DNA of 64,000 bases from an uncultured Bacteroidota bacterium (GCA_963809695.1 CAWEKI010000012.1:85493-149492), one strand, 5' to 3'. Positions 15,167 through 56,836 are shown, numbered from the stretch's first letter. Program-made: numbers and translations. Notes: generated by a model from the sequence alone, not told the origin.

Positions 15167-15195
15167 TTGACAAATCGCTTTTCCTTTTGTATACT
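15167..15195 (+). promoter_or_regulatory. sigma70-consensus-like promoter upstream of GH28 gene
   Basis: TTGACA (15167-15172), 17-nt spacer, TATACT (15190-15195), ~52 nt upstream of the ATG at 15248. The ORF-track ORF starting with TTG at 15167 is this promoter read as codons. Confidence 0.5.
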
Positions 15196-15210
15196 GCTTT
15201 ACATTAAAGT

Positions 15211-15229
15211 TAGCGGTAAAGTAACCGAT
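15211..15229 (+). promoter_or_regulatory. candidate operator: imperfect palindrome CGGTAAAG-TAACCG (shared AGTAACCG motif)
   Basis: TAGCGGTAAAGTAACCGAT lies ~19 nt downstream of the -10. A near-identical site is TATCGGTTAAGTAACCGCT at 35354-35372, and a third copy in opposite orientation (AACCGGTTACT) is at 19185-19195. Confidence 0.35.
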
Positions 15230-15247
15230 TATCCTCTTTGCCCCCTT

Positions 15248-18099: not shown

Positions 18100-19163
18100 A
18101 GAATACCCGAAGGATAAACACGCTGGCGACTCTGGATGACATCGCAAAACGGGTCAAGGTCTCTCGCGTTACGGTTTCAAAGGCGCTCCGCGGACACCCC
18201 GATATTTCCGACAAGACGGCACGGATGGTGCGGAAAGTGGCTGAGGAAATCGGGTACCGCCCCAACATCATTGCCAGGAGCCTTTCCGCCCGGCGCTCGA
18301 ACATGATCGGCCTCGTCGTTCCGAAGATCGCGCACTTCTTTTTCGGGTCCGTGATCGAGGGCATCTACAACGCAGCATTCAGCAACAATTACGAAACCAT
18401 CCTGACGGTTTCCCAGGAGAACCCCGATCGAGAGCGAAGACACCTCCAGACGCTCATTTCGATGCGCGTGGATGGCATTATCATTTCCGTTTCTCAGGGG
18501 ACCAGGGATCTGGAGATCTTCCAATGGATCAAGAAGCTCGGGGTTCCACTCCTGTTCGTGGATCGCCAGCCCTCTCCACGCCCTGAAGGGTTCAGCAGCG
18601 TTCTTGTGGACGACAGAGGGGGGACCTTCAAGGCGATCGAGCATGCGATCAGCATCGGTTACCGGAAGATCGCGTGCATTGGCGGAGACACGCGTATCAA
18701 TATCGGCAAGGAGCGCACTGCCGGGTTTGAGGCCGCTATGAAAGCGCACGGTCTTCCGGTGGAAAAGCGATGGGTTGTGCCCGGAGGTTTCAGCAAGGAG
18801 ACCGGCTATGACGCGGTTCTCAAGCTTCATGCGGAGCGCCAGCTTCCCGAGCTCATTTTCGCCATGACCTATCCGGTCGCTCTCGGAGTGTACGAGGCGG
18901 CAAAGGAGCTGGGGCTCTCAATTCCGCAGGATGTGGACATTATCTGCTTCGGTGACAGCGACGTCTCGAGAGTGATATCGCCGGCGCTCAGCTGCGTACG
19001 GCAGCCCAGCTATGAACTGGGTTTGAAGGGGGTGGAGGTCATGCTCAACGTCCTGGCCCACCCGGAATCTGCGCAGGAACAACACTTGGTGCTTCCGGCG
19101 GATCTCATTGTGCGGGAAACGTGCACAGGAAAGAATGTGATCAAGTCGTCAAAGAAGGGATAG
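18096..19163 (+). CDS. LacI-family transcriptional regulator
   Basis: The ATG at 18096 overlaps the GH105 stop (ATGA). An N-terminal HTH is present (ATLDDIAKRVKVSRVTVSKALRGHPDISDKTARMVRKVAEEIGYRPNIIARSL), followed by a periplasmic-binding-protein-like sugar-binding core (MIGLVVP…). Confidence 0.85.
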   Translation: MKNTRRINTLATLDDIAKRVKVSRVTVSKALRGHPDISDKTARMVRKVAEEIGYRPNIIARSLSARRSNMIGLVVPKIAHFFFGSVIEGIYNAAFSNNYETILTVSQENPDRERRHLQTLISMRVDGIIISVSQGTRDLEIFQWIKKLGVPLLFVDRQPSPRPEGFSSVLVDDRGGTFKAIEHAISIGYRKIACIGGDTRINIGKERTAGFEAAMKAHGLPVEKRWVVPGGFSKETGYDAVLKLHAERQLPELIFAMTYPVALGVYEAAKELGLSIPQDVDIICFGDSDVSRVISPALSCVRQPSYELGLKGVEVMLNVLAHPESAQEQHLVLPADLIVRETCTGKNVIKSSKKG

Positions 19164-19195: not shown

Positions 19196-19278
19196 GTCGA
19201 CGGCCAGTCCGGAGGCGTATGCCTCTCTTGTCGGATAGCGGGATCCTATTGAACAACAACCACGCCAGTCCTCTAGCA

Positions 19279-21708
19279 ATGAGTAGAACTTCATTCAAGA
19301 GAGCCACTCCACAGTGGTGCCTAAATCTCCTGGTCATCGTGCTCATGGGAGTGACCCCCAGAGCCACGTCACAGACTGTGCTTCTCGACTGCTACTATAA
19401 TAATGAGTGGAAGGAGGATCCCGCGGGTGTCCCGATCCGCTACCATTACATCTGGAGGGACACGACAGACTCGGGCTTCTCGCAGCTCGGGCACACCATT
19501 GAAGCTGTTGGAGGTGCAACGGATACGCTCTGCCAGGCGCCTGCGCTCCCGTCTCTCCGCCGGACAGGCATTTATATCATTGTGGATCCCGATACACCAG
19601 AGGAAACCCCTGTACCTCACTATGTTCAACCGGCGGAGGTCCTTGCGATTAAACAATGGGTGAGAGAAGGAGGAGTCCTGGTGCTGCTGGGGAACGACAA
19701 AGGCAAGGCGGAATTCGAACACTTCAATTTACTGGCAGAGAAATTCGGAATGCATTTCAATAAGGACAGCAGGAACCGCGTTCAGGCGAACAACTATGCT
19801 ACGGGGACATTCGACTCGCTGCCATCTCATCCCCTGTTCAAGGGGGTGGCCAGGATCTTTTTGAAAGAAATCAGCACGCTCCGTCTGAGTCCACCGGCAC
19901 AGCCAATTCTCAGATCCGGGGGCGATGTGATTATGGCTTCTGCAGATTTCGGAAAAGGGTTGGTCTTTGCGGTCGGCGATCCCTGGCTCTACAACGAGTA
20001 CATGGATCAACGCCGGCTGCCTGCCGGCTATGGGAACGCGCTTGCGGCAAGGAATCTTTTTCGTTGGCTGTTGGACCGTGCCCGATTGGCGGAGGGACGA
20101 CGTCCGGCGGTATCTCCGTCGCCAGCGGCACTTCCCTTTGAGATGCCTTCGATCCGGGTTCCGGAATTCCCTGCGCGCCAGGTGAACATCCGGGAGCATG
20201 GAGCGGTCCCGGACGGTCGCACGATGAACACCAAAGCGTTTGCGGATGCCATCGCCTCGTGCTCACGTGCCGGCGGCGGGATGGTCATCGTGCCTCCCGG
20301 AACCTGGCTCACCGGGCCTGTCCGGCTGGAGGATAACGTGAATTTGCATCTCCAGCGGGGAGCACTGCTTCAATTCAGCAGCAACATCAACGACTTTCCG
20401 TTCATTGCGGGGATCTCCGGCGCTTCGAAGAAGTTCATTGTGACACCACCGCTCTCAGCTTTCAGGGCAAACAACATCGCGATCACGGGAGACGGGATCG
20501 TTGATGGGGCCGGGGAGGCATGGCGCTACGTCAAGAAAGAAAAGCTGACGGCGGCGCAGTGGAAAGCGCTCACCGCTTCAGGCGGGGCGGTCACGGCGGA
20601 CGGCAAAGAATGGTGGCCGTCAAAAGAGGCGATGGAAGGTGAAGCCTATCTCAAGCAGCTTGAATCATCCGGCAGGCCTCTCACTGCTGCAGACTACGCA
20701 AAAACACGGGAGTTCCTTCGGCCCGATCTGGTCTATTTTGTCCAGTGCGACGGGGTGCTGATCGATGGCCCGACATTTGAAAACTCCCCGCGTTATCACG
20801 TTCATCCCATTCAGTGCGAAGACCTCACGATCCGGAACGTGAAGGTCCTGGCGCCATGGTACGCGCAGAATGCCGACGGCATTGACCTGAGTTCATGCCG
20901 GAGAGTGCTCGTCGAGAATGCAACGGTGGATGTGGGAGACGACGGGCTCTGTCTCAAGCCGGGGAATCTTGCCCGCAGCCAGTCGCCCGGCCCCGCGTGC
21001 GAGGACATCATCATCAAAGACTGCGTCGTGTACCATGCCCACGGCGGTTTCGTTATCGGGAGCGAGAGCTTTGGGGGTGTCCGCAATGTGGCGGTGCGCA
21101 ATTGCGTCTTTGTGGGAACCGATGTGGGGCTGCGCTTCAAATCGGCGAGGGACCGCGGAGGAGTGGTGGAGAAGGTGTACATTGACGGCGTCCGGATGCG
21201 AAGCATCGCAACCGATGCCATCCTGTTCGACATGTACTATGCCGGTGGTGCGCCCGATGTGGAGGCGGCGAAAGAGTTGGCGGTGAGGGTTCCGCAGCCG
21301 GTAACGGACCGGACTCCGCAGTTCCGGGATATTTTCATCAAGAATGTCGTGTGCGACGGTGCACAACGGGGCATGGTGATCAACGGTCTCCCGGAAATGC
21401 CCGTGAAGAACATCGTACTTGATTCGGTCTCTCTCTCGACCAATACCGGGGTCGTTCTGGCCGATGCCGAGAATATTCAGATGAACGGGTGCAGCTTCTT
21501 TCCGGCTGCGGGTCCCGTTCTTTCGGTGATCCAGAGCCGCTCCATCACGGTCAGGGGGGGCGCATTCCCGGCAGGGGCCGATCCGCTCATCAGCGTGTCG
21601 GGGGAAAACTCGGGGGGGATAAAGTTCAAGGGGATCGATATATCAAAGAAGAAGACGCCGGCCGAATTGGGAAAGAACGTCCGGCCCGACGCGGTCCAAT
21701 GGGAGTGA
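19279..21708 (+). CDS. two-domain protein: N-terminal ~280-aa domain of unknown function (GATase1/ThuA-like fold suggested) fused to a GH28 polygalacturonase-family domain
   Basis: Start chosen at the ATG at 19279 (MSRTSFKRATPQWCLNLLVIVLMGVTPRATSQ signal-like). The upstream ATG at 19219 is an alternative start. The N-domain contains GIYIIVDPDTPEE…GGVLVLLGND. From ~aa 300 the GH28 signature appears (IREHGAVPDGRTMNTKAFADAIASCSRAGGGMVIVPPGTWLTGPVRLEDNVNLHL), followed by catalytic-region motifs (GDDGLCLK, GHGGFVIGSE). Confidence 0.8.
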   Translation: MSRTSFKRATPQWCLNLLVIVLMGVTPRATSQTVLLDCYYNNEWKEDPAGVPIRYHYIWRDTTDSGFSQLGHTIEAVGGATDTLCQAPALPSLRRTGIYIIVDPDTPEETPVPHYVQPAEVLAIKQWVREGGVLVLLGNDKGKAEFEHFNLLAEKFGMHFNKDSRNRVQANNYATGTFDSLPSHPLFKGVARIFLKEISTLRLSPPAQPILRSGGDVIMASADFGKGLVFAVGDPWLYNEYMDQRRLPAGYGNALAARNLFRWLLDRARLAEGRRPAVSPSPAALPFEMPSIRVPEFPARQVNIREHGAVPDGRTMNTKAFADAIASCSRAGGGMVIVPPGTWLTGPVRLEDNVNLHLQRGALLQFSSNINDFPFIAGISGASKKFIVTPPLSAFRANNIAITGDGIVDGAGEAWRYVKKEKLTAAQWKALTASGGAVTADGKEWWPSKEAMEGEAYLKQLESSGRPLTAADYAKTREFLRPDLVYFVQCDGVLIDGPTFENSPRYHVHPIQCEDLTIRNVKVLAPWYAQNADGIDLSSCRRVLVENATVDVGDDGLCLKPGNLARSQSPGPACEDIIIKDCVVYHAHGGFVIGSESFGGVRNVAVRNCVFVGTDVGLRFKSARDRGGVVEKVYIDGVRMRSIATDAILFDMYYAGGAPDVEAAKELAVRVPQPVTDRTPQFRDIFIKNVVCDGAQRGMVINGLPEMPVKNIVLDSVSLSTNTGVVLADAENIQMNGCSFFPAAGPVLSVIQSRSITVRGGAFPAGADPLISVSGENSGGIKFKGIDISKKKTPAELGKNVRPDAVQWE

Positions 21709-22757
21709 ACGTGAAGTACTTTCGGTGCCTCTTGTCCGGCCTGGTTCTTGGTGGCACATGCCTTGCCGTTGCCGCGATGGACACGGTGGTGGTCGATCAC
21801 GGGGGAGGAGGCGATTGTACGTCCATTCAGGCGGCACTCAACGCCATTCCGCAGGAACATGATCGGCAAGTCACGGTCGTCGTCCGGAACGGCCTTTACG
21901 CGGAGAAGGTTTTTATCACAAAGAGCAATATCATCTTCATCGGCGAGGATCGCGACAGCACGAGGATCGTTTTTCCCGAGCTGCGAGAGAACTGGAACCG
22001 AAGCCATTGCGGGAGCGACTGGGGAGCCGGCGTGGTTAATATTGATACCGGCGTGACAGATATTACCATCGCGAACCTGACAGTCTATAACAACTTTGGC
22101 TCGCTGCACAACGCATACAACAAACATCAATTTGCCATCAGGGGGGCCGGGACGCGGATCATGCTTCTCCATTGCGCGGTCATCTCCGACGGGGGAGATG
22201 CGCTTAGCCTCTGGAACAAGGAAAACGGCATGTACTACCATGCGGACTGCACGTTTGAAGGATGGGTGGATTTCGTCTGTCCGCGCGGATGGTGTTACAT
22301 CATCCGGTCGACGTTTTTTGGCCATAACACTCCCAGCGCGAGCATTTGGCATGACGGAAGCGGGAACCGGGCCCAGAAATTCGTGATCCGGGATTCCTAC
22401 TTCGACGGGGTTCCCGGTTTTCCGCTTGGGCGGAATCATCTCGACGCACAGTTCTATCTTGTGAACTGCCGGTTTTCCAGGACTATGGCCGACCGCCCCT
22501 TCTTCCGCCCGCTATCAAGCCCGCGCGAATGGCAATGGGGAGCGCGGCACTACTTCTACCACTGTCATCGCGATAGCGGCGACTTCAGCTGGTTCCGGGA
22601 CAATTTGTCTTCTGCTGAGGGTTCGCCGCGTGCTGAAGACATCAATGCCAGGTGGGCCTTCGATGGGCAATGGGATCCGGAATCTGCAATGCCCTGGACG
22701 ACGGCATCGTTGAAAGCCCGGCCCGGCACACTACCACAACGCGGTCATCATCCATGA
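21699..22757 (+). CDS. pectinesterase (carbohydrate esterase family 8)-like
   Basis: Start at ATG 21699 (MGVNVKYFRCLLSGLVLGGTCLAVAA), overlapping the previous gene by 10 nt. The beta-helix motifs are CE8-like: QFAIRGAGTRIMLLHCAVISDGGDALSLW matches the QAVAL…QDTLY region, and GWVDFVCPRGWCYI matches GTVDFIFG. The text-book QDT motif is substituted by GDA. Confidence 0.7.
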   Translation: MGVNVKYFRCLLSGLVLGGTCLAVAAMDTVVVDHGGGGDCTSIQAALNAIPQEHDRQVTVVVRNGLYAEKVFITKSNIIFIGEDRDSTRIVFPELRENWNRSHCGSDWGAGVVNIDTGVTDITIANLTVYNNFGSLHNAYNKHQFAIRGAGTRIMLLHCAVISDGGDALSLWNKENGMYYHADCTFEGWVDFVCPRGWCYIIRSTFFGHNTPSASIWHDGSGNRAQKFVIRDSYFDGVPGFPLGRNHLDAQFYLVNCRFSRTMADRPFFRPLSSPREWQWGARHYFYHCHRDSGDFSWFRDNLSSAEGSPRAEDINARWAFDGQWDPESAMPWTTASLKARPGTLPQRGHHP

Positions 22758-24031
22758 AACTCAACAAGTATTCGCTTGGCATCGGGGACAGGTTCGGGCG
22801 GGAGGGAGTCCCACAGCTCCGCGCGCTGCAAATGGCAGCGGAGCAGGGAGCCCATGTCACGCCGGTGTGGAACAAATCAAACAGGGAACACATCATCATC
22901 GGTTCTTCCCCCGGTGACACGCGAGGCGAAGCTGACGATGCGGTAAACGCGCTGGGCTGGCTGGCTCCGTATTTCGTGGACGCGGACCATATTGGCCTTG
23001 CCACGGCCGGGAAGTTCCTGGAGTCCAGCGACTTCTTCACCATTGACGTTACGGACTTCATTGGCGCACCCCCGGCTGCCGATGCAGCCGCCTCGTTTGT
23101 TGCTGCCATGGAGCGCTTCAAGGGTGACCTGGGGGTCCCGGGTATTGCGGGGCCCCTTCACATCGACAACGACCTGCTCGAACGGGTCGCGCGAAAATAC
23201 CTCAGTGCAGTCAGTGCCGCGGGAGAAGTCTATCGGCACATCGCACGCGCCCGCGCGGCCGACACGTTTATCACCGAAGTGTCCCTCGACGAAGCAGAAG
23301 AGCCTCAGACCCCCGCGGAATTGCTGTTTATCCTTGCGGCGATCTCCATGGAACACATACCGGTCCAGACCATCGCCCCCAGGTTCTCCGGCGCTTTTCT
23401 CAAGGGGGTCGACTATGTGGGCAACGTTGCTACGTTCGCACGAGAATTCGAGCAGGATGTCGCCGTCATCGCATTCGCGGTGAATACTTTCGATCTCACG
23501 TCGGACCTCAAACTCAGCGTCCATTCCGGCAGTGATAAATTCTCGTTGTATCCTGAAATGCGCCGGGTCATTCGTAAATTTGACGCGGGGCTCCATCTGA
23601 AGACCGCCGGAACGACATGGCTGGAAGAACTGATCGGCCTGGCCGAAGCGGGAGGCGAAGGGCTGCAGGCGGCGAAGCATGTCTATGCCGCGTCATGCGA
23701 GCGTTATGACGAATTGTGCAAGCCTTACCTCTCGGTCATCAGCATCGATAAATCCAGACTTCCGCGTGTGCAGGATGTGCAGGTGTGGACCGGCCAGGAT
23801 TTCGCCGGAGCATTGCGGCATGACCAGGCCAAAGGGACGTACAACAGAGATTTCCGGCAACTGCTTCATGTCGGGTACAAAGTGGCAGCGGAAATGGGCC
23901 CCCGGTTCACTGCACTTTTGCGGGAGCACTGCGCCGTGATTGCACGCAACGTGACCGAGAATTTGTACCACCGCCATATCCTCCCGTTGTACGTCGGTGA
24001 AGACCATCACCAGAGGCGGACCCAATCATGA
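22754..24031 (+). CDS. uxaE: tagaturonate/fructuronate epimerase (UxaE family)
   Basis: The ATG at 22754 overlaps the CE8 stop (ATGA). The motifs LKLSVHSGSDKFSLYP and HLKTAGTTWLEE match the Thermotoga UxaE blocks SLHSGSDKFSVYP and HVKTAGTSYLEA. It lies immediately upstream of uxaC. Confidence 0.7.
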   Translation: MKLNKYSLGIGDRFGREGVPQLRALQMAAEQGAHVTPVWNKSNREHIIIGSSPGDTRGEADDAVNALGWLAPYFVDADHIGLATAGKFLESSDFFTIDVTDFIGAPPAADAAASFVAAMERFKGDLGVPGIAGPLHIDNDLLERVARKYLSAVSAAGEVYRHIARARAADTFITEVSLDEAEEPQTPAELLFILAAISMEHIPVQTIAPRFSGAFLKGVDYVGNVATFAREFEQDVAVIAFAVNTFDLTSDLKLSVHSGSDKFSLYPEMRRVIRKFDAGLHLKTAGTTWLEELIGLAEAGGEGLQAAKHVYAASCERYDELCKPYLSVISIDKSRLPRVQDVQVWTGQDFAGALRHDQAKGTYNRDFRQLLHVGYKVAAEMGPRFTALLREHCAVIARNVTENLYHRHILPLYVGEDHHQRRTQS

Positions 24032-25452
24032 CAATTTCTTACATTGACAACGATTTCCTGCTCTCGACAAACCAGGCCCAGGAACTCTACCACGGCTATG
24101 CCGAGCGACTGCCCATTATCGATTACCACTGCCATCTCTCGCCGGAAGATATCGCCCGGAACAGGCAGTTTGACAACCTGACGCAAATCTGGCTGAAAGG
24201 AGACCACTACAAGTGGCGCGCGATGCGTGCGTGCGGCGTGAGCGAGCGCTACATTACCGGCGAAGCCTCCGACTGGGAGAAATTCGAGCGCTGGGCGGAA
24301 ACGGTCCCCCGGACGCTGCGTAATCCGCTCTACCACTGGACTCACCTGGAGCTGAGACGCCCTTTCGGGATCCAGGACCGCCGTCTCAATGTGTCGACGG
24401 CGAAAAGCATTTGGGAGGAATGCAATGCAAAACTTGCCCAGCCGGACTACTCAACCCGGGGCATCCTTCACCAGATGAACGTGGAGGTCGTGTGCACCAC
24501 GGACGATCCGGTGGATTCGCTGGAGCACCACGTGAGAATGGGGAGCGACCCGGCCCTCAAAGTCCATGTGATTCCGGCGTTTCGTCCCGACAGGGCGATG
24601 GCCGTGGAAGCACCCGCGCGCTTTGTCTCCTATGTGCGGTCGCTTGCGCGTGCGGCGGATATGGAGATTCTGCACTTTCATGATTTTCTTGCAGCGTTGA
24701 GAAAGCGGCACGACTACTTCCACCAGTGCGGCTGCCGGCTGTCCGACCATGGCCTCGAAACAATGCTTACGGAACAGTATACCGAGGAGGAACTTCGAAC
24801 CGCCTTCGATCGTCTCCTGCAGGAAAAAAGCCTTGGGCAAGGCGAGATCCTCAAGTTCAAATCCGCCATGCTTTATGAATTTGCCGTCATGGATTGGGAA
24901 AAAGGATGGACCCAGCAGTTTCATCTGGGCGCCTTGCGGAACACGAATTCGCGCATGATGCGCACGCTCGGGCCCGATACCGGGTTCGACTCCATCGGCG
25001 ACTTTGAGATTGCGCGCCCTCTGGCACGGTTTCTCGATCGCCTGGACAACGGGAACCGGCTTGCAAAAACCATCATCTACAATATCAACCCGCGCGACAA
25101 TGCGGTGATGGCGTCCATGATCGGTAACTTTCAAGATGGAACCGTGCCGGGCAAGATTCAATATGGACCCGCATGGTGGTTCCTGGACCAAATGGACGGC
25201 ATGAAAAAGCAAATGGAAGCCCTCTCCAACATGGGGCTTCTGAGCCGGTTCGTCGGTATGGTCACGGATTCGCGGAGCTTTCTTTCCTATCCCCGGCACG
25301 AGTACTTCCGACGGCTTCTTTGCAGCCTCCTGGGCGAGGACATGAAGCGGGGGCTCGTCCCCGGTGACATGGAGCTCGTAGGCAACATGGTGAGCGATAT
25401 CTGCTACTTCAATGCGAAGCGCTATTTCGGCTTCACGGAGGAATCTGCATGA
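24028..25452 (+). CDS. uxaC: uronate (glucuronate/galacturonate) isomerase
   Basis: Near-collinear with E. coli UxaC: LPIIDYHCHLSPEDIA, IWLKGDHYKWRAMRACGV, NPLYHWTHLELRRPFGI, LLSRFVGMVTDSRSFLSYPRHEYFRR. ATGA overlap with uxaE. Confidence 0.95.
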   Translation: MTISYIDNDFLLSTNQAQELYHGYAERLPIIDYHCHLSPEDIARNRQFDNLTQIWLKGDHYKWRAMRACGVSERYITGEASDWEKFERWAETVPRTLRNPLYHWTHLELRRPFGIQDRRLNVSTAKSIWEECNAKLAQPDYSTRGILHQMNVEVVCTTDDPVDSLEHHVRMGSDPALKVHVIPAFRPDRAMAVEAPARFVSYVRSLARAADMEILHFHDFLAALRKRHDYFHQCGCRLSDHGLETMLTEQYTEEELRTAFDRLLQEKSLGQGEILKFKSAMLYEFAVMDWEKGWTQQFHLGALRNTNSRMMRTLGPDTGFDSIGDFEIARPLARFLDRLDNGNRLAKTIIYNINPRDNAVMASMIGNFQDGTVPGKIQYGPAWWFLDQMDGMKKQMEALSNMGLLSRFVGMVTDSRSFLSYPRHEYFRRLLCSLLGEDMKRGLVPGDMELVGNMVSDICYFNAKRYFGFTEESA

Positions 25453-26204
25453 ACGCACTCTTCGACCTCACAGGAAAGACCGCTGTCGTCACCGGCGCGA
25501 GCACAGGGCTGGGCATGGGGATGACGCTTGGCCTGGCTTCTGCAGGTGCGGACGTTCTTCTCGTGGACCGCGTGCAGAGCGAGGAAGTCGCCAGCAAGGT
25601 CAGGGACATGGGCAGACGTGCAGCCACGCTCACCGTTGACCTGATGAAGATGGCATCCATTCCCGTCGTTGTGGAAAAAGCCATCGCGGAATATGGCAAG
25701 ATCGACATCCTGGTCAACAATGCAGGGATTATTCGCCGCGCGCCGGCATTGGAGTTTTCGGAGAAGGATTGGGACGAGGTAATGCAGCTGAATGCCAAGG
25801 CCACGTTCTTCCTGACACAGGCAGCCGCGCGCGACATGCTGCTGCGCAAGTACGGCAAGATCATCAACATCGCGTCGCTGCTGGCATTTCAAGGGGGCAT
25901 CATCGTGCCGTCGTACTCCGCGAGCAAGGGAGCTGTTGCACAGGTGACAAAAGCCCTTGCCAATGAGTGGGCACCGCATGGCATCAGGGTGAACGCCATC
26001 GCGCCCGGGTACATGGCAACGAACAATACCAGGGCTTTGCGCGAAGACCCGGTCCGTTCCAGGGCTATCCTCGACCGGATCCCCGCGGGCCGCTGGGGCG
26101 TGCCGGAAGACCTGCAGGGTGCTGCCGTCTTCCTTGCCTCCGCCGCATCTGATTATGTCACCGGCCACGTCCTTGCGGTAGATGGAGGCTGGCTCGCAAG
26201 ATAA
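25449..26204 (+). CDS. kduD: 2-dehydro-3-deoxy-D-gluconate 5-dehydrogenase (SDR)
   Basis: 251 aa, alignable along its whole length with E. coli KduD: GKTAVVTGASTGLGMGMTLGLA, IDILVNNAGIIRR, LEFSEKDWDEVMQLN, NAIAPGYMATNNT, RIPAGRWG, DGGWLAR. ATGA overlap with uxaC. Confidence 0.9.
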   Translation: MNALFDLTGKTAVVTGASTGLGMGMTLGLASAGADVLLVDRVQSEEVASKVRDMGRRAATLTVDLMKMASIPVVVEKAIAEYGKIDILVNNAGIIRRAPALEFSEKDWDEVMQLNAKATFFLTQAAARDMLLRKYGKIINIASLLAFQGGIIVPSYSASKGAVAQVTKALANEWAPHGIRVNAIAPGYMATNNTRALREDPVRSRAILDRIPAGRWGVPEDLQGAAVFLASAASDYVTGHVLAVDGGWLAR

Positions 26205-26222
26205 TGCTGTCTCAAAAGGCGA

Positions 26223-27068
26223 TTGGAGAAGATTATGGAAGTACGCTACCTGCCAAATGACGTCTCGTACCAGCGAATGACCACGCGGGAGCTCCGCGAC
26301 GCGTTCGTCCTGGAGAATCTCTTTGAGGCCGGCCGGATCAGGATGGTCTACGCGGACAGCGATCGCGCAATCGTGGGAGGCGCTGTCCCCGTCACGGGAA
26401 CGCTGCCGTTGCTCGCGACACAGAAGGAAATGGCCGCGGCGCATTTCAATGACCGTCGCGAGGTCGGGATCATGAACATCGGCGGCGAAGGAACAGTGAG
26501 CGTCGACGGCACGGAATACCCGCTCGGCGCGAAGGACCTGCTCTACGTTGGAAAGGGAGCGAAGAGCATCGAGTTATCCAGCCGGGATGCCGGAGCGCCG
26601 GCCGTGTATTATCTCGTATCGTTCCCGGCCCACACCACCTACCCCACGGCAGCAATGCGCTTCCGCGACGCGGAGCGCTCTCCGCTTGGGACCGCGGGCG
26701 CGGCCAACAAACGGACGATCCGCAAGTATGTGCACGGCGGAGGGATCAAGAGCTGTCAGCTCGTCATGGGGATGACGCAGCTCGACGAGGGGAGTGTCTG
26801 GAACACCATGCCTCCGCATACCCATCAGCGCCGGTCGGAGGTCTACCTCTATTTCGATCTCGATCCGGATGGCATCGTCGTCCATCTGATGGGCAAACCG
26901 CACGAGACAAGGAATCTTATGCTGCGCAACCGGCAAGTGGCACTCTCGCCTCCATGGTCCATCCATGCCGCGGCAGGGACGAAGCACTATGCGTTTGTGT
27001 GGGCGATGGGAGGGGAGAACCAGGAATTCTCGGACATGGATGCGGTGGCGCCGGACGAAATTCTCTAA
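26223..27068 (+). CDS. kduI: 5-dehydro-4-deoxy-D-glucuronate (4-deoxy-L-threo-5-hexosulose-uronate) ketol-isomerase
   Basis: 281 aa, collinear with E. coli KduI: VGIMNIGGEGTVSVDG, LYVGKGAK, PAHTTYPT, CQLVMGMTQL, WNTMPPHTHQRRSEVYLYF, SPPWSIHAAAGTKHYAFVWAMGGENQEF. Confidence 0.9.
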   Translation: MEKIMEVRYLPNDVSYQRMTTRELRDAFVLENLFEAGRIRMVYADSDRAIVGGAVPVTGTLPLLATQKEMAAAHFNDRREVGIMNIGGEGTVSVDGTEYPLGAKDLLYVGKGAKSIELSSRDAGAPAVYYLVSFPAHTTYPTAAMRFRDAERSPLGTAGAANKRTIRKYVHGGGIKSCQLVMGMTQLDEGSVWNTMPPHTHQRRSEVYLYFDLDPDGIVVHLMGKPHETRNLMLRNRQVALSPPWSIHAAAGTKHYAFVWAMGGENQEFSDMDAVAPDEIL

Positions 27069-27109
27069 ATCACGATCGATTCACGTGTCACTTTCTGAAG
27101 AGACAACTA

Positions 27110-28420
27110 ATGGACCAGCCGGACAAGGCGCTTCCCACAGTTGGACCGCCGCTCAAAGCCGCCAGTGCCGCGGCCGCCGTGGGGCACTATCGCTGGACGA
27201 TCTGCAGCCTCCTCTTCTTCGCGACGACCATCAATTACCTTGACAGGAACATCCTCGGGATCCTTGCCCCTACCCTGCAAAAGGAGATTGGCTGGACGCC
27301 CGTGGAGTACGGGTACATCACCACTGCGTTTCAGGCGGCGTATGCGCTGGGACTGGCCTGGTTTGGGTGGTTCATTGACCGGTATGGGACCAAGATCGGT
27401 TATTCCCTTTCTCTGATCGGATGGACGATCGCCGCCGCGGCCCATGCGCTGGCACAATCGGTGTTTGGCTTCGGCGTGGCACGTTTCTTCCTCGGCCTGA
27501 GCGAAGCCGGCAACTTCCCCGCCGCAATCAAGGCCACTGCAGAGTGGTTTCCGAAAAGGGAGCGTGCGCTGACAACGGGGATCTTCAACTCCGGAGCGAA
27601 CATCGGGGCCGTCGTTGCAGCCGCCGTGGTTCCGTGGCTCACATTGACGTACGGCTGGAGAGCCGCCTTTATCGCGACCGCCGCAACCGGATTCATCTGG
27701 CTTATCTTCTGGGTTCTGATGTACCAGAGACCGGAGGAATCCCGGAAGCTCTCAAAAAAGGAATTAGACTACATCCTGAGCGATCCGGAGGAAGTTGTCA
27801 ATGAGAAAATTCACTGGATGAAGCTTCTCCGGTACCGGCAGACGTGGGCCTTCGTCCTGGGAAAGTTCCTGACCGATCCTGTCTGGTGGTTCTACCTCTA
27901 CTGGCTGGCGCTTTACCTCAACAATAATTTCGGGCTCTCTCTCTCGGGCCTTGCCCTGCCGCTTATCGTGATCTACACCATGACGAGTGTGGGGAGCATC
28001 GGCGGCGGGTGGCTCTCGGGCGCAATGATCAGCCGCGGCGTCCCGGTCAACAAGAGCCGGAAGCTTGCCATGCTCGTTTGTGCCCTGCTCGTCCTTCCCG
28101 TTGTCTTTGTCGGAGAGATCAAGGACATGTGGGTTGCCGTCCTGATCATCGGGCTGGCTGCAGCGTCCCACCAGGGTTGGTCGGCGAACATCTTCACCAC
28201 GGCGTCGGATATGTTCCCCAAAAGAGCCGTCGGGTCGGTCGTAGGCCTCGGCGGACTCGCCGGATCTGTCGGCGGCATGATCTTCATGACCCTGTCAGGC
28301 TATCTCGTCCAGACAACGGGGAGCTACATGGTGCATTTCATCATCTGCGGATCGGCCTACCTTATTGCCCTCGGAGTGATGCAGCTGCTGACCTTCAGGG
28401 CCAAACCAGTGGAGGTGTAA
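27110..28420 (+). CDS. exuT: hexuronate transporter (MFS, ExuT family)
   Basis: Start at ATG 27110 (MDQPDKALP…). 12-TM MFS protein with an ExuT-like N-half (INYLDRNILGILAPTLQKEIGWT…YGTKIGY…AEWFPKRERA). Confidence 0.8.
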   Translation: MDQPDKALPTVGPPLKAASAAAAVGHYRWTICSLLFFATTINYLDRNILGILAPTLQKEIGWTPVEYGYITTAFQAAYALGLAWFGWFIDRYGTKIGYSLSLIGWTIAAAAHALAQSVFGFGVARFFLGLSEAGNFPAAIKATAEWFPKRERALTTGIFNSGANIGAVVAAAVVPWLTLTYGWRAAFIATAATGFIWLIFWVLMYQRPEESRKLSKKELDYILSDPEEVVNEKIHWMKLLRYRQTWAFVLGKFLTDPVWWFYLYWLALYLNNNFGLSLSGLALPLIVIYTMTSVGSIGGGWLSGAMISRGVPVNKSRKLAMLVCALLVLPVVFVGEIKDMWVAVLIIGLAAASHQGWSANIFTTASDMFPKRAVGSVVGLGGLAGSVGGMIFMTLSGYLVQTTGSYMVHFIICGSAYLIALGVMQLLTFRAKPVEV

Positions 28421-28424
28421 TGTC

Positions 28425-29258
28425 ATGAACCTTGAGGAAATCAACAGGCTCTACGATTTTGCCGGCAAGACAGTCCTTCTTACGGGAGGTGCAGGCGTGC
28501 TCACCGGCGAGATCGCGTGCGCACTTTTCGGGTGCAACGCGAACATTGCCATCATCGATCGAGACCCGGCACTGGCCGACACCGTCATGAAACGCATTGA
28601 GCCGGTCGGGGACCGGGCAGTCGTGATATACGGAGATGTGCTTCAACCCGAGACCATGCAGAGGGCGCTGGAGCAGGTCATCACGGCGTACGGCAAGGTG
28701 GATTTCCTGGTCAATGGCGCCGGGGGAAACAATCCCAAAGCCACAACGACGCCTACGACGACATTTTTTGACCTGCCTCAGGATGCGCTTCGGTTCGTGT
28801 CGGACCTCAACCTGCTCGGAACCATCATACCGTGTCAGGTGATCGGCAAGCACATGGCTGAGCGGAAAGAAGGGGTCATCCTGAATATTTCCTCCATGAA
28901 TGCGTTTCGCCCTCTGACGCGGATCCCTGCATACTCGGCGTCCAAAGCGGCCGTCACGAATTTCACGCAGTGGCTCGCTGTATACATGGCACAAGAGATC
29001 TCGCCCAGGATCAGGGTCAATGCCATTGCCCCCGGCTTCTTCCTGACCAATCAGAACCGCTTCCTGCTGATCGATAAGGAGAGCGGAAAAGAAACGGTCC
29101 GTGGACGGAAGATCCTTGATCACACGCCGATGGGACGTTACGGGATGCCGGAGGATCTGCTGGGCACCGTGTTGTGGCTGCTGTCGCCTGCATCGAATTT
29201 CGTGACCGGCGTAGTCATCCCGGTCGATGGCGGGTTCTCCGCCTATAGTGGAGTGTAA
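28425..29258 (+). CDS. SDR-family oxidoreductase, probably fructuronate/mannonate reductase (UxuB-like, short-chain type)
   Basis: 277 aa with a Rossmann TGGAGVLTG motif and the SDR catalytic pattern (NISSMNAF…YSASKAAV…). It sits between exuT and gnd in the hexuronate operon. Substrate assignment is by context. Confidence 0.6.
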   Translation: MNLEEINRLYDFAGKTVLLTGGAGVLTGEIACALFGCNANIAIIDRDPALADTVMKRIEPVGDRAVVIYGDVLQPETMQRALEQVITAYGKVDFLVNGAGGNNPKATTTPTTTFFDLPQDALRFVSDLNLLGTIIPCQVIGKHMAERKEGVILNISSMNAFRPLTRIPAYSASKAAVTNFTQWLAVYMAQEISPRIRVNAIAPGFFLTNQNRFLLIDKESGKETVRGRKILDHTPMGRYGMPEDLLGTVLWLLSPASNFVTGVVIPVDGGFSAYSGV

Positions 29259-29276
29259 ACAGAAGGAGGAGGTATC

Positions 29277-30685
<1,409 letters not shown>

Positions 30686-30689
<4 letters not shown>

Positions 30690-31975
30690 ACAACGGCAAT
30701 GCAAGGACGGGACGCATGAACAATCTTGTGGGAGCAGGGTCATTTGAGAAACCGTTGACTCCTGCCGAGATCCGCGCGATCTGCACGGAGTCTATCGGAC
30801 GGCTCAGTCTTGACGGGAAACGTGTCCTCGTGCTTATTCCCGATCATACACGGCACGCTCCTATCGATCTGTTTTTCCATATTCTCTACGACCTGCTCGG
30901 GAGCCGGGTCAGCGCGCTGGATTACCTGGTCGCAACCGGGACTCACCAGGCAATGGAGATGGAACGGATCTATAGGCACGTGGGAATTGACGCTCAAAAA
31001 CATCAGCAGACCTTCCCAAAGGTCAGATTCTTCAATCATGTGCACGACGGCCCGAATGACCTGACGATGCTCGGGCTCATCCCTTCGGAGGAAATCCGGC
31101 GCCTCACCGGCGGATTGTTCAGTCAGGATATTGCCGTGACGATCAACCGGCGGGTGCTGGAATACGACCAGGTGGTGATCGTGAGCCCTGTCGTTCCACA
31201 TGAAGCGATCGGGTTCTCGGGAGGGAACAAGTACTTTTTCCCCGGTATCGGAGGTATCGACATCATCCAGACCTTTCACTGGCTTGCGGCCATCATCACC
31301 AATCCGCTGATCAACGGCGTGAAGGACACACCGACCAGGGAGGTCATCAACAGAGCGGCCTCGATGCTGCACGTTCCCACCCTCTGCTTTGCTTTTGCCG
31401 TGGATGACCACGACAGGCTGGCGTGTCTTTATGCCGGGGATCCAAAAGAGGCCTGGTCGGGTGCGGCTGATTACTCGGCCAGGATGCACATCACATACTG
31501 GGAAAAACCCGTTGCGCGGATTCTGGCGGTCACGCCTCCCATCTACGAAGAACTCTGGGTCGGGGGAAAGGCGATGTACAAACTTGAACCGGTCGTAGCC
31601 GAGGGCGGCGAGCTCATCATCTACGGGCCCCAGATCCGGGAGGTGTCATTCGTGCACGGCGAGCAGATCCGGCGCGTGGGCTATCATGTGCGGGACTATT
31701 TCGTCAAGCAATGGGACCGGTTCTGTAACGAGCCCAAGCTCATCCTGGCACACTCCACGAATGTACGGGGCATCGGCGAGTTCGACGAATCCGGAGAAAA
31801 GCCGCGTATCGCTGTGACTCTTGCGACCGGAATTCCCGAGGACGTGTGCCGGGGCATCAACCTGGGGTATCAGGACCCCCGGTCTATCGACGTGGATGCA
31901 TGGCGCCGGCAACAGAACGATGACATGCGTGTGGTGGAGAACGCCGGACAGGTCCTGTACAGGCTGCAAGCGTAA
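30686..31975 (+). CDS. LarA-like nickel-pincer-nucleotide-dependent 2-hydroxyacid racemase/epimerase family protein (DUF2088 N-domain)
   Basis: 429 aa. The start overlaps the gnd stop (ATGA). The LarA-type DxTR motif is present (VLVLIPDHTRHAPIDL), as is the Gly-rich lysine-containing block (PHEAIGFSGGNKYFFPGIGGIDIIQTFH), with overall LarA-like collinearity. Confidence 0.65.
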
Positions 31976-32006
31976 TTGTAACCACCTACTAACCGCGAGG
32001 ATACCT

Positions 32007-33092
32007 ATGGCATTGCACATTCATCCGGAAAAAGACACCCAATTCGACCTTCTTGCCCTTGGGGAGTGCATGATCCGCCTGAGTCCCCCCGGACATCAGC
32101 GGATCGAACTCACTCCCTACTTTGAAGCATACGCCGGCGGCGGCGAGTACAATGTGGCCTATGCCCTGGCCCGCTACGGCATGCGCACAAGCTGGGTGTC
32201 CCGTTTGGTGGACAATCCGCTCGGCCATTTTATCAAGAACCATGCGCGCACAAGCGGCATGGATATCAGCGAGGTCGTCTGGGTTCCGTACGACGGGTCC
32301 GGCCGCGCTGACCGGATCGGGCTCAACTTCACCGAAGTGGGCATGGGTGTGCGTGCGAGCGTGACTATGTATGACCGCGGGCATACGGCTGTGGCGCACA
32401 TGAAAGCAGGAGAGGTGGATTGGAGCAGGATTTTCTCTCAGCGCAAAGCCCGCTGGTTCCATACCGGCGGCATCTTTACAGCCCTGAGCGATGGGTGCGC
32501 GGATGTGGCGCTCGAGGCGATGAAGGCGGCCCACGATGCCGGGACGGTGATCAGCTACGACCTGAATTTTCGAAGTAAACTCTGGTCAAGCAAAAAGGCG
32601 ATCGAAGTCACAAAGAAACTGGTCCCTTACATCGACGTGCTGATCGGGAACGAGGAGGACTTCCAGAAAGTGCTCGGCTTCGAAGTCGAAGGGACCGATG
32701 CGAGCCTCACGTCGCTTCCTATCGAGGGGTATAAGAGAATGGTTGAAAAAGTCGTGAAGACGCACCCGCACATTCAGGCGGTCGGCACGACTCTGCGGGA
32801 AGTGGTCAGTGGATCTGTCAACAATTGGTCGGCGATTATGTATTATGACGGGCGGTTCTACGAGTCCCGGCGGTACGAGCGGCTGGAGGTGGAAGACCGG
32901 GTGGGAGGAGGAGATGGCTTCTGCAGCGGCTTCGTCTACGGGCTCCTGCACGGCATGGCCCCTCAGGAATGTGTGGATCTTGGCTCTGCCCATGGGGCGT
33001 TGCTGCAGTCCACACGCGGGGATACGAGCATGGTCACGATGGAAGAGACCATGCATGTGATGAAAGGGGGGAGTGCTCGCATCAAGCGATAA
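32007..33092 (+). CDS. kdgK: 2-dehydro-3-deoxygluconokinase (PfkB family)
   Basis: 362 aa. GECMIRLSPPGH…YAGGGEYNVAYALARYG matches the KdgK N-terminus. The PfkB C-terminal anion-hole motif is present (DRVGGGDGFCSGFVYGLL). Confidence 0.8.
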   Translation: MALHIHPEKDTQFDLLALGECMIRLSPPGHQRIELTPYFEAYAGGGEYNVAYALARYGMRTSWVSRLVDNPLGHFIKNHARTSGMDISEVVWVPYDGSGRADRIGLNFTEVGMGVRASVTMYDRGHTAVAHMKAGEVDWSRIFSQRKARWFHTGGIFTALSDGCADVALEAMKAAHDAGTVISYDLNFRSKLWSSKKAIEVTKKLVPYIDVLIGNEEDFQKVLGFEVEGTDASLTSLPIEGYKRMVEKVVKTHPHIQAVGTTLREVVSGSVNNWSAIMYYDGRFYESRRYERLEVEDRVGGGDGFCSGFVYGLLHGMAPQECVDLGSAHGALLQSTRGDTSMVTMEETMHVMKGGSARIKR

Positions 33093-33115: not shown

Positions 33116-34033
33116 GTGACACTGAAAGGAATCCATACCGTGACCGCGATAACAAGAGAAGCTCTGAAAGCCTTCCAGCCGCAGCATGAACGGTTCATCG
33201 GCTTTGACTCTGATGGCTGTATCTTCGATTCGATGGAATTGAAGCACAAGGAATGCTTCATCCCCAATATCATCAAATATTACAATCTCCAGCCTGTGTC
33301 GAAGTATGCCCGCCAGGCAGCAGAATTTGTAAACCTGTATTCTTTCTGGCGCGGAACAAACAGGTTTCCGGCTCTGGTGAAGACCTTCGAACTGCTCAGA
33401 GACTGGCCGGAAGTGCAGCGCCGCAGGGTATCGCTCGCTGATTGGGCCCCCATTCAGGAGTTCATTGAGTCGGCCTCTGCGCTCGGCAACCCGGCATTGA
33501 AGGAGGCAGTGGCAAAGTCCGGAAACGGCGTTCTGAAACTCACGCTCGAGTGGAGCGAAGCGGTGAACCGGGATATTGAAGCCATGGTAAAGGGATTGCC
33601 CCCATTTCCCCTTGTCCGGGAAAGTCTGAAGAAACTTCAGGGGCGTGCGGACATGATGGTGGTCTCGGCGACGCCGGCGGAGGCGCTGCGGCGGGAATGG
33701 GTGGAGCACAAGATCGATCAGTACGTGGCGCTCATCGCCGGACAGGAGCTGGGGAAGAAGGAAGAGCAACTTGGCCTGACCGCGTCCGGTAAATACGCTT
33801 CAGGGCACATCCTCATGGTAGGAGACGCACTGGGAGATCTGAAAGCGTCACGCTCTGCCGGCGCTCTGTTCTACCCGGTCCTTCCCGGCAAGGAGGACGA
33901 GTCCTGGAAACTCTTCCATGATGAAGTGTGCGAAGAGTTCCTTGCAGGGAAATACACCAGGGAAAGCGAAGCAATGCATCTCGCGGCGTTTGAGAAAGCG
34001 CTGCCTAAGGTTGCGCCGTGGATGAAGGCGTGA
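33116..34033 (+). CDS. HAD-superfamily hydrolase (putative sugar-phosphate phosphatase)
   Basis: GTG start. HAD motif I is GFDSDGCIFDS and motif IV is MVGDALGDL. Last gene of the operon. Substrate unknown. Confidence 0.55.
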   Translation: MTLKGIHTVTAITREALKAFQPQHERFIGFDSDGCIFDSMELKHKECFIPNIIKYYNLQPVSKYARQAAEFVNLYSFWRGTNRFPALVKTFELLRDWPEVQRRRVSLADWAPIQEFIESASALGNPALKEAVAKSGNGVLKLTLEWSEAVNRDIEAMVKGLPPFPLVRESLKKLQGRADMMVVSATPAEALRREWVEHKIDQYVALIAGQELGKKEEQLGLTASGKYASGHILMVGDALGDLKASRSAGALFYPVLPGKEDESWKLFHDEVCEEFLAGKYTRESEAMHLAAFEKALPKVAPWMKA

Positions 34034-34064: not shown

Positions 34065-35222
34065 ATGATTCGGATGTGCAGAAGTATTCTTGCCGGGGTG
34101 GTCTTGTGTATGGCTGCCCCGCTTTTCGCGGGTGAGGGAGTTGTGGTCACTGTCAGGAATCCGTCGACGCTTCCGCGGGTGAGCGAAACTGTCGAAGTGC
34201 AGTTGGCGGACCTTCTGGCGCTTGACTCCCTGCTCGGGAAAGGAAACGTCGGGGTCAGAGACCAGGCGAGCGGAGGGCAGCTCGTGGTGCAGGTGACGGA
34301 CGAGGAGCTGCTGTTTCAGTCGGACTTCGCCGCTGGAGAGACGAAGGCGTTTCTGGTAGAGACAGGAGAACAAGCCGGGAAGGGTGTCGTTTCGAAAGTG
34401 GATGGTTTTTTTGTAACGCCGCGCGAGGACTATGCATGGGAGAACGACCGGATCGCCTTTCGCATGTACGGGCCGGCGCTCGCGGCGGAAGTCAGCAACG
34501 GTATCGACGTCTGGACGAAACGGGTTCGCGGCCTGATTGTTCGCAAGTGGTACGAGGCGGACGCGAAAAGCGGCACCGGGAATTACTATCACACTGACCG
34601 GGGTGAGGGGGCGGATTTCTTCGCGGTGGGTAAGACGCTCGGCGCAGGCGGATGCGGGATTTGGTACATGGATAGTCTCTACCAACCAGGCGTGTTTTCG
34701 TCGTACAGGACCCTGAGCAACGGACCAATCAGGACATCGTTTGAGTTGACCTACACCCCATGGAACGTTGGAGGAAAGAGACTGACGGAGCGGTTGCGCA
34801 TATCGCTCGATGCCGGCCGGAATCTCAACACGATCCAGGTCGCGTTCTCCGGCGTCGAGCCGGGGGATTCGCTGCTGATCGCTTGCGGTCTGGTCAAGAG
34901 GAAGGGTGTGACCATCCACATTTCCGACAACGGGTCACGGGCGGCCCTCTGGGGGCCGACGAACGATGATCCTGCGAACGGCTCGCTCGGCACCGGGATA
35001 GTCCTGCTTCCATCCTCCGTCGTGGGGACGCGCGCAGACAGCATCCAGGTCCTGGTGCTTGCGCGCATGGACGGAGGGGAGTCATTCACGTACTGGGCCG
35101 GTGCCGGATGGACCCGCAGCGGAGATTTCGCCAATGCCAATGCCTGGGACGAACACCTGGGAAATTTCTCGACCATGCTTGCCGAGCCGCTCGAGATCAC
35201 TGTGGCATCCCGCCGCGATTAG
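34065..35222 (+). CDS. secreted hypothetical protein (possibly DUF4861 family, commonly found in pectin loci)
   Basis: 385 aa with a signal peptide (MIRMCRSILAGVVLCMAAPLFAGEG). All-beta-looking sequence with a conserved-looking YAWENDRIAFRMYGPAL block. Family name is from memory, not searched. Confidence 0.45.
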   Translation: MIRMCRSILAGVVLCMAAPLFAGEGVVVTVRNPSTLPRVSETVEVQLADLLALDSLLGKGNVGVRDQASGGQLVVQVTDEELLFQSDFAAGETKAFLVETGEQAGKGVVSKVDGFFVTPREDYAWENDRIAFRMYGPALAAEVSNGIDVWTKRVRGLIVRKWYEADAKSGTGNYYHTDRGEGADFFAVGKTLGAGGCGIWYMDSLYQPGVFSSYRTLSNGPIRTSFELTYTPWNVGGKRLTERLRISLDAGRNLNTIQVAFSGVEPGDSLLIACGLVKRKGVTIHISDNGSRAALWGPTNDDPANGSLGTGIVLLPSSVVGTRADSIQVLVLARMDGGESFTYWAGAGWTRSGDFANANAWDEHLGNFSTMLAEPLEITVASRRD

Positions 35223-35303: not shown

Positions 35304-35332
35304 TTGACAAAAACGAGTCGTGTTGCTATATT
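35304..35332 (+). promoter_or_regulatory. sigma70-consensus-like promoter upstream of TonB-dependent receptor gene
   Basis: TTGACA (35304-35309), 17-nt spacer, TATATT (35327-35332), ~125 nt upstream of the ATG at 35457. Confidence 0.5.
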
Positions 35333-56149: not shown

Positions 56150-56391
56150 GAGCCGCTTATCTGATGTCTGCACATCCACGCGACACCAAAAATCGATAGT
56201 GACTGCAAAATAGGACATCTGTCATAGACCTGCAACTGGGACAAGACGAACTCAGGGGACACTAAGCACCAAGAGGGACAAAACAATGGTTTTGCTTTTG
56301 CCCTATTGTTCTTTTCTCTGTGTCCTTTGTGTTCCTCTTTCTGATGATTTGGGTGCGCAAGGCAGGATGATCGTTAATAATGTAGGCACCC

Positions 56392-56826: not shown

Positions 56827-56836
56827 GAGGTCCACG

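Follow-up and report, generated by a model that had tools for sequence, protein, structure and literature searches.

How could a pectin-degrading bacterium dispose of galacturonate when mannonate dehydratase (UxuA) is missing from its hexuronate genes? The question is raised by a chain of genes in a 64,000-nucleotide stretch of DNA, here called the window, from an uncultured Bacteroidota bacterium (GCA_963809695.1, CAWEKI010000012.1:85493-149492). The chain encodes UxaC, UxaE, a short-chain dehydrogenase/reductase (SDR), the 6-phosphogluconate dehydrogenase Gnd and a LarA-like protein that we call GntE, together with KduI, KduD, a PfkB-family kinase and a protein of the haloacid dehalogenase (HAD) superfamily. 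A first-pass annotation had suggested that the LarA-like protein epimerises mannonate to gluconate and that the genes form a candidate alternative route to the pentose-phosphate pathway. Our analysis makes it probable that the region is the cytoplasmic core of a pectin locus with two branches, one leading from galacturonate through mannonate and gluconate to Gnd and the other made up of KduI, KduD and KdgK.

In the first branch galacturonate would be converted to tagaturonate by UxaC and tagaturonate to fructuronate by UxaE, after which the SDR would turn fructuronate into D-mannonate. GntE would then invert C2 with nickel-pincer nucleotide (NPN) as its cofactor to give D-gluconate. The gluconate would be phosphorylated by an enzyme that is not recognisable in the window, and Gnd would convert 6-phosphogluconate to ribulose-5-phosphate by oxidative decarboxylation. 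This branch would stand in for the UxuA route, and it would be redox-neutral because the NAD(P)H spent at the SDR is regained at Gnd. We infer that the epimerase acts before the kinase. In the second branch an unsaturated uronate would be freed by the GH88/GH105-type hydrolase and converted by KduI and KduD to 2-dehydro-3-deoxy-D-gluconate (KDG). The PfkB kinase would phosphorylate KDG to 2-dehydro-3-deoxy-6-phosphogluconate (KDPG), which would be cleaved by an Eda encoded elsewhere.

The first branch turns on GntE. We found that its best relative of solved structure is PDB 4NAR (E 1.2e-63); the alignment pairs residues 23-427 of GntE with residues 9-422 of the chain at 34% identity. 4NAR is TM0442 (GntE2) of Thermotoga maritima, an NPN-dependent D-gluconate/D-mannonate 2-epimerase whose activity has been shown (Desguin et al., PMC7583248). 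We compared GntE with the LarA homologue (LarAH) group sequences in the supplement of that paper. Identity was 47.7% to the group 19 members Trad_0660 and Plim_2304, 34.6% to TM0442 of group 20 and 26-31% to group 18, and because of these values GntE was placed in group 19. Group 18, to which its best NCBIfam match belongs, was rejected on the same comparison.

The residues needed for epimerisation are also in place. Using the LarA residue list of PMC7583248, we found the cofactor-binding residues R56, K182 and H198 (R75, K184 and H200 in LarA) as well as the catalytic residues D53, H87, H172 and K295 (D72, H108, H174 and K298 in LarA), with H87 aligning to H73 of 4NAR. Across 78 GntE homologues D53, R56, H172, E173, K182, H198 and K295 are invariant. 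Groups 18-20 have as their signature a loop E-V/S after the catalytic histidine and a tryptophan in helix alpha-11 before the catalytic lysine (PMC7583248). The motif ELWVGGK of GntE holds W290, which matches that tryptophan. Its loop after the second catalytic histidine reads E173-A174; among the homologues the loop is E-V in 61, E-A in 12 and E-S in 3, and the alanine appears to be a minor departure from the hexonate signature. The only Pfam match was Lar_N (77 bits), and the NCBIfam matches of GntE included no model for LarAH group 19 or 20. As a full-length homologue of validated epimerases with all catalytic and cofactor residues intact, the protein is, judged by its sequence, a GntE1-type D-mannonate/D-gluconate 2-epimerase of group 19. 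The C2 epimerisation of mannonate that the first-pass annotation had foreseen for it agrees with this assignment.

The enzymes that would act before and after GntE were recognised by profile searches (Table 1). Both members of the predicted UxaC and UxaE pair are present by Pfam, and UxaC is also above its NCBIfam cut-off. At 425 aa the UxaE of the window is short, and it is divergent; PF16257 covers model positions 78-448 of 475, and the protein is without some 65-80 N-terminal residues relative to the solved enzymes. It gave no NCBIfam match; against the solved UxaE 6IL9 it scored 82 bits, and the motifs SxHSGSDKFS and HxKTAGTxWLE are kept. The SDR scores above the curated cut-off for D-mannonate oxidoreductase, consistent with the fructuronate reductase role proposed for it. 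Gnd is a canonical 6-phosphogluconate dehydrogenase, and its gene overlaps the start of gntE, so that the coupling of gnd to the LarA-like gene in the middle of the operon was correctly seen. The transporter of the major facilitator superfamily (MFS) had TIGR00893 as its best NCBIfam match, at 264 bits and below the cut-off of 395. Homology and conservation show the identities predicted for UxaC, KduD, KduI, the SDR, Gnd and GntE. The substrates of the divergent UxaE and of the ExuT-like transporter are those we infer.

The genes of the dehydratase route were not found. By tblastn in all frames uxuA, eda and the genes for FGGY and P-loop gluconokinases were without a match in the window. The UxuA query was an E. 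coli sequence whose identity was confirmed by a score of 535 bits with Pfam UxuA; it was likewise negative in 82 related loci, and an unbiased clustering of all open reading frames (ORFs) around GntE gave no UxuA-like family. A Pfam scan of window ORFs of about 90 aa or more, picked by a longest-non-overlapping call, detected none of uxaA, uxaB, larB, larC and larE and no aldarate pathway genes. The first-pass annotation had reported uxuA, uxaA, uxaB and kdgA as missing and had placed the gluconate kinase outside the window; these searches bear it out.

The association of GntE with these enzymes extends well beyond this genome. We scanned one genome per species for GntE relatives, found 554 and examined the best 80 loci. 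In the 42 well-flanked loci, which have at least 4 kb on both sides of GntE, a gene was counted as a neighbour when it lay within 7 kb. The SDR was a neighbour in 38 of these (some of the matches show no more than 36-40% identity and may represent paralogues), UxaE and Gnd in 25 each and UxaC in 17. The gnd and larA-like pair is therefore not peculiar to the window. With the window proteins as tblastn queries, we found the same neighbours in metagenome-assembled genomes (MAGs) of the Fibrobacteres-Chlorobi-Bacteroidetes (FCB) group, Myxococcota, Chloroflexota, Acidobacteriota, Armatimonadota, Elusimicrobiota and Verrucomicrobiota. The MAGs that hold the closest GntE relatives are from soil and sediment and bear the labels Bacteroidota, Candidatus Zhuqueibacter and KSB1. 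Linkage of these genes around GntE is far beyond chance, and it supports GntE as a replacement for mannonate dehydratase. The recurrence of the SDR, Gnd and UxaE beside it also speaks for mannonate and gluconate as the physiological substrates of this group 19 subfamily.

Which gene would supply the phosphorylation step? The PfkB kinase encoded directly after gntE has the T. maritima KDG kinase TM0067 (2AFB) as its best solved relative, and it scored 343 bits against the kinase half of Eda-kinase fusions (NF041633); it reached no NCBIfam equivalog cut-off. Its orthologues co-occur with kduI and kduD in six of seven long loci. KduI and KduD of the window are above their equivalog cut-offs, and Eda lies within the cluster in the relatives L004 and L014 (loci are given by our L numbers). 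The kinase is thus most likely, on these sequence comparisons, KdgK serving the KduI/KduD branch for unsaturated uronates, and a parallel kduI-kduD-kdgK branch had been suggested before.

Other genomes encode a paralogue, PfkB-B, that is about 41% identical to the window kinase; its scores are 158 bits against 2AFB and 239-250 bits against NF041633. We considered the window kinase as a gluconate kinase and judged this less likely, since it is nearer than PfkB-B to TM0067 and the Eda-fused kinases and tracks kduI and kduD. In the loci of Myxococcota and in some of Chloroflexota, PfkB-B is the sole kinase beside GntE and Gnd, and L008 and L014 hold both paralogues. This makes PfkB-B a candidate PfkB-type gluconate or mannonate kinase; we know of no such kinase that has been characterised. 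It was seen in L010 (11301-12380), L002, L007-L014, L017, L018, L021, L022, L031, L035, L040, L042 and L080.

The position of PfkB-B is taken by other genes elsewhere. Some loci have beside GntE a genuine P-loop gluconokinase (TIGR01313, 190 bits; cut-off 114), which argues that the product of the epimerase is unphosphorylated gluconate, and some have an FGGY kinase whose best match, below cut-off, is gluconokinase. Among the 39 Gnd-linked loci this kinase slot is filled by the HAD gene in 19, by PfkB-B in 14, by an FGGY kinase in 2 and by a P-loop gluconokinase in 2, and is empty in 2. In 83 loci we found no co-occurrence of HAD with a PfkB-B, FGGY or P-loop kinase; for the 39 Gnd-linked loci the exclusion has a Fisher P of 3e-9, a value that ignores kinship among the loci. 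The slot states are intermingled on the neighbour-joining tree built from GntE, also among the closest relatives of the window, where the order is L008 (kdgK and PfkB-B), the window (kdgK and HAD), L002 (PfkB-B) and L003-L006 (kdgK and HAD). In the compact modules L032 and L038 (MFS, then LacI-SDR-Gnd-GntE-HAD), and also in L019, kinases of every family are lacking within about 8 kb, and in compact SDR-Gnd-GntE modules HAD is the sole unassigned gene. Because HAD and the kinase types never co-occur in Gnd-linked loci, HAD can be said to fill the slot: it occupies the position held by a gluconate kinase in other clusters. This slot pattern is the only unexplained feature of the locus. HAD was found in L001, L003-L006, L019, L020, L024, L025, L028, L032, L033, L038, L047, L057, L071, L078, L079, L081 and L082.

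Does the HAD protein itself phosphorylate gluconate? It could be a phosphotransferase or atypical kinase that joins gluconate (or mannonate) to 6-phosphogluconate and, in roughly half the Gnd-linked clusters, takes the place of gluconate kinase non-orthologously; we regard this as rather unlikely. The HAD motifs are complete (D31-x-D33, S184/T186, K215 and D237/D241) and invariant in 35 homologues, and the structural model (pLDDT 92.7) has a Rossmann-like core with a C1 cap. These motifs and the structural neighbours are those of ordinary phosphatases, which counts against a kinase replacement. So does the occurrence of HAD homologues outside hexuronate loci, where one of 61% identity stands alone, and in the clusters L085-L088, which are without Gnd. 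The family is large (1377 clusters at 50% identity, E <=1e-3), and its fusion partners, a CobA-type adenosyltransferase, a Cof-type HAD and GH42, are heterogeneous and give no hint of a kinase. Three roles are conceivable for the protein: that of a safety-valve phosphatase, that of a phosphotransferase or mutase, and that of a stand-in for the kinase.

Further genes recur around GntE. A PdxB-like 2-hydroxyacid dehydrogenase (2-Hacid_dh plus DUF3410; NF001309, 424 bits, just below the cut-off of 434) often lies directly upstream of it (L024, 8516-9676; L002, L008, L014 and L017). PfkB together with 2-Hacid_dh is reminiscent of the KguK/KguD pair in 2-ketogluconate catabolism. The order in L085-L088 is a LarB-like AIRC-Sua5 fusion, SDR, HAD, the PdxB-like dehydrogenase and GntE. 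A pyrophosphate (PPi)-phosphofructokinase-like gene (NF010675, 362 bits; cut-off 273) is present in seven GntE loci (L024, L028, L047, L057, L071, L078 and L079), all of which bear HAD.

Several points weigh against the two-branch reading of the region. The UxaE protein is short, and its kinship with the solved UxaE enzymes is no more than distant. GntE stays below the NCBIfam cut-offs, its best match being the group 18 putative hexonate epimerase model NF052594 at 160 bits against 500. The D-mannonate Km of GntE1 from Corynebacterium glutamicum, a validated group 19 enzyme, is as high as 120 mM, and the authors who described it were in doubt whether mannonate is the native substrate (PMC7583248). 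Gluconate kinase, eda and larB/larC/larE had no match in the 64-kb window, so that genes elsewhere would have to provide two steps and the supply of cofactor. A promoter and terminator scan of 16.5-36 kb gave counts no higher than those of shuffled controls; for this reason the operon boundaries are drawn from spacing alone, and the chain is presumed to be co-transcribed.

Some of these points could be read in favour of a reversed order of steps, as has been measured in Lactobacillus suebicus, in which the PfkB kinase would phosphorylate mannonate and the LarA-like enzyme would epimerise 6-phosphomannonate to 6-phosphogluconate for Gnd. No gluconate kinase is encoded in the window, the sole kinase directly follows gntE, and the Km of validated GntE enzymes for free mannonate is high (17 and 120 mM; PMC7583248). 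All three GntE enzymes that have been assayed nevertheless use unphosphorylated mannonate and gluconate (PMC7583248, PMC11770544). Moreover, P-loop gluconokinases hold the kinase position in some loci, and the E. coli member of that family reportedly refuses mannonate (PMC6978723). As the window kinase is also closest to a validated KDG kinase and keeps company with kduI and kduD, we hold the reversed order to be unlikely. The same high Km of GntE1, for which Desguin et al. suggested a different native substrate (PMC7583248), and the scores of GntE below the NCBIfam cut-offs would also suit a group 19 epimerase acting on another sugar acid, such as an aldarate or a uronate, with Gnd present by chance as a pentose-phosphate gene. 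Against this stand the frequency of the mannonate-forming SDR (38 of 42) and of Gnd (25 of 42) near GntE in the well-flanked loci, the translational overlap of gnd and gntE in the window, and the gluconate kinases in the neighbouring slot of other loci. There is also no UxuA in the window or the 82 loci to consume mannonate otherwise, and the window has no aldarate pathway genes, so that a different sugar acid seems very unlikely to us.

Adjacency might finally be no sign of a functional link: an unlinked UxuA would handle mannonate, and gnd and gntE would serve gluconate catabolism only. T. maritima does have a separate kdgAK-uxuBA operon (PMC3750489). The four-base start/stop overlaps and short gaps along the whole chain, and the recurrence of the same neighbourhood in Bacteroidota-like, Myxococcota, Chloroflexota, Acidobacteriota and Armatimonadota genomes, argue against such an arrangement, which we consider highly improbable. 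The reading that we prefer remains a mannonate- and gluconate-forming branch beside a KduI/KduD/KdgK branch.

The gene calls came from an ORF listing with translation, followed by Pfam and NCBIfam scans of each ORF (Table 1), and the gene list of the first-pass annotation held throughout. All ten genes that it named from uxaE to HAD lie on the + strand; the interval it gave for them, 22754-33092, ends at the stop of the kinase gene and contains nine, with HAD just outside. The chaining it described, by ATGA overlaps or gaps below 45 bp, was recovered. ATGA start/stop overlaps join uxaE to uxaC, uxaC to kduD and gnd to gntE, and the remaining junctions from kduD through HAD have gaps of 30, 41, 4, 18, 31 and 23 bp, with none above 41 bp as far as the kinase. 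The chain is longer than had been thought. Five genes precede uxaE, with further ATGA overlaps between the GH88/GH105-type and LacI genes (LacI start at 18096) and between pectinesterase and uxaE, and the DUF4861 gene follows HAD after 31 bp. In all, 16 co-directional genes occupy 15167-35222 with gaps of at most 55 bp.

Table 1. Genes of the co-directional chain, with positions in the window and the basis of each assignment.
Gene or product	Position	Strand	Basis or remark
GH28	15167-16846	+	Pfam match; first gene of chain
GH88/GH105-type unsaturated uronyl hydrolase	16873-18099	+	Pfam match
LacI-family regulator	18096-19163	+	Pfam match; inside chain
GH28 (second)	19219-21708	+	Pfam match
Pectinesterase	~21699-22757	+	Pfam match
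uxaE, predicted tagaturonate/fructuronate epimerase	22754-24031	+	Pfam PF16257, 155 bits (cut-off 27)
uxaC, predicted uronate isomerase	24028-25452	+	Pfam UxaC, 688 bits; NCBIfam NF002794, 642 bits (cut-off 387)
kduD, predicted 2-dehydro-3-deoxy-D-gluconate 5-dehydrogenase	25449-26204	+	TIGR01832, 375 bits (cut-off 339)
kduI, predicted 5-dehydro-4-deoxy-D-glucuronate isomerase	26235-27068	+	NF002091, 390 bits (cut-off 250)
MFS transporter, anion:cation symporter type, ExuT-like	27110-28420	+	Pfam MFS_1, 213 bits
SDR, predicted fructuronate reductase / D-mannonate oxidoreductase (UxaD/UxuB)	28425-29258	+	NF006132, 357 bits (cut-off 281)
gnd, predicted decarboxylating NADP-dependent 6-phosphogluconate dehydrogenase	29277-30689	+	NF006765, 713 bits (cut-off 413); TIGR00873, 696 bits (cut-off 427)
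gntE (LarA homologue, group 19), predicted D-mannonate/D-gluconate 2-epimerase	30686-31975	+	Homology to 4NAR and group 19
PfkB-family kinase, most likely kdgK	32007-33092	+	Best solved relative 2AFB, 238 bits
HAD-superfamily protein	33116-34033	+	HAD motifs, C1 cap (subfamily IA-like)
DUF4861 protein, N-terminal signal-like sequence	34065-35222	+	Pfam PF16153, 240 bits; last gene of chain

Pfam matches around the chain are to GH130, GH78, a glutaminase-A-like hairpin protein, GH116 and a melibiase-like protein upstream, and downstream to a TonB-dependent receptor that includes a carboxypeptidase-regulatory domain and to a protein bearing a type IX secretion system (T9SS) sorting tail. The locus is one for using pectin/rhamnogalacturonan, and it belongs to a bacterium of the FCB group. 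GC content is even across the window (0.55-0.61), and Rfam and tRNA scans of the window gave no matches. The best sigma-70-like site of the scanned region, at 35304-35332, agrees in 11 of 12 positions (TTGACA, a 17-bp spacer, TATATT and an extended TG). It falls within the 234-bp gap after the DUF4861 gene, ahead of the gene for the TonB-dependent receptor (35457-38489). Two long ORFs had no Pfam match: one of 717 aa (10138-12291, +) lies amid the glycoside hydrolases of the pectin locus, and one of 547 aa (43381-45024, -) adjoins a multihaem cytochrome c gene (44985-45800, -). At 55622-60230 we found genes for an extracytoplasmic function (ECF) sigma factor (-), a FecR-like anti-sigma protein and a TonB-dependent receptor whose N-terminus carries a FecR_C/STN signalling domain, a trio that appears to serve trans-envelope signalling and to be unrelated to the hexuronate operon.

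Is the route itself new, as the first-pass annotation had implied? It is not: a prediction of this route dates from 2012, and the activity of the epimerase was demonstrated in 2020. The link by GntE from mannonate to gluconate, and thence to the pentose-phosphate or phosphoketolase pathway, is attributed to Rodionova et al. 2012 (PMC6978723, PMC7583248). In vitro, D-mannonate/D-gluconate epimerisation has been reported for GntE1 and GntE2 (2020, PMC7583248) and for LarAH15, an oomycete enzyme (PMC11770544). T. maritima has a UxaR-regulated operon, aldH-pelB-gnd-uxaR-uxaE-uxaD-gntE-gntK, that is induced 2- to 5-fold on pectin (PMC3750489). Like the window, the Thermotoga system combines UxaC and UxaE leading to an SDR fructuronate reductase, a LarA-family 2-epimerase and Gnd in a pectin locus whose operon is without UxuA. 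From the Thermotoga set of uxaC, uxaE, SDR, gntE, gntK and gnd, five of six genes are present and chained in the window, and gntK (FGGY or P-loop) was not found there. The two differ in that the window has a group 19 rather than a group 20 epimerase, no FGGY gntK, a LacI-type rather than a GntR-type regulator and an MFS rather than an ABC transporter, and in that kduI, kduD, kdgK and HAD are merged into its chain.

C. glutamicum GntE1 shares with the window protein its group, the catalytic and NPN-binding residues and an E-V/S-type loop; its published context is LarB/C/E, LacI, UxaC and a long-chain mannonate dehydrogenase (PMC7583248), whereas the window and most of the 80 loci have the SDR, Gnd and UxaE. 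The hybrid isomerase-phosphoketolase pathway of L. suebicus is also redox-neutral and also passes through UxaC, UxaE and fructuronate reductase to mannonate, 6-phosphogluconate and Gnd (PMC6978723). It differs in placing the kinase before the epimerase, with 6-phosphomannonate as intermediate and phosphoketolase downstream, and its genes are unidentified (PMC6978723). The Ashwell isomerase pathway (E. coli UxaC-UxaB-UxaA / UxuB-UxuA, KdgK and Eda; PMC6353982) has in common with the window UxaC as first enzyme, a KDG kinase and an ExuT-like transporter. The window is without UxaB and without an altronate or mannonate dehydratase, and carbon from the first branch would leave as CO2 and pentose phosphate, not as pyruvate and glyceraldehyde-3-phosphate. 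With the KduI/KduD route (PMC6353982) the window shares KduI, KduD, KdgK and an upstream GH88/105 hydrolase as substrate supplier; Eda/KdgA is not in the window, yet it is in the cluster of L004 and L014. The window therefore adds a taxonomically distant member to a known route, with a group 19 epimerase and with the KduI/KduD/KdgK genes merged into it.

Our data indicate that the UxaE-SDR-GntE-Gnd route is widespread, with 554 relatives in many phyla, and not confined to Thermotoga. The native substrate of group 19 had been in doubt, and the context argues for mannonate and gluconate in hexuronate catabolism. The phosphorylation step appears to be filled by at least four unrelated genes across lineages, of which the PfkB paralogue and HAD are candidates only. 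If HAD or PfkB-B does phosphorylate gluconate or mannonate, it would be a new kind of enzyme and the locus would gain in interest. Engineering a fermentation of pectin-rich waste could profit from a redox-neutral path that leads from galacturonate to a pentose phosphate (PMC6978723), and finding the kinase would be useful there.

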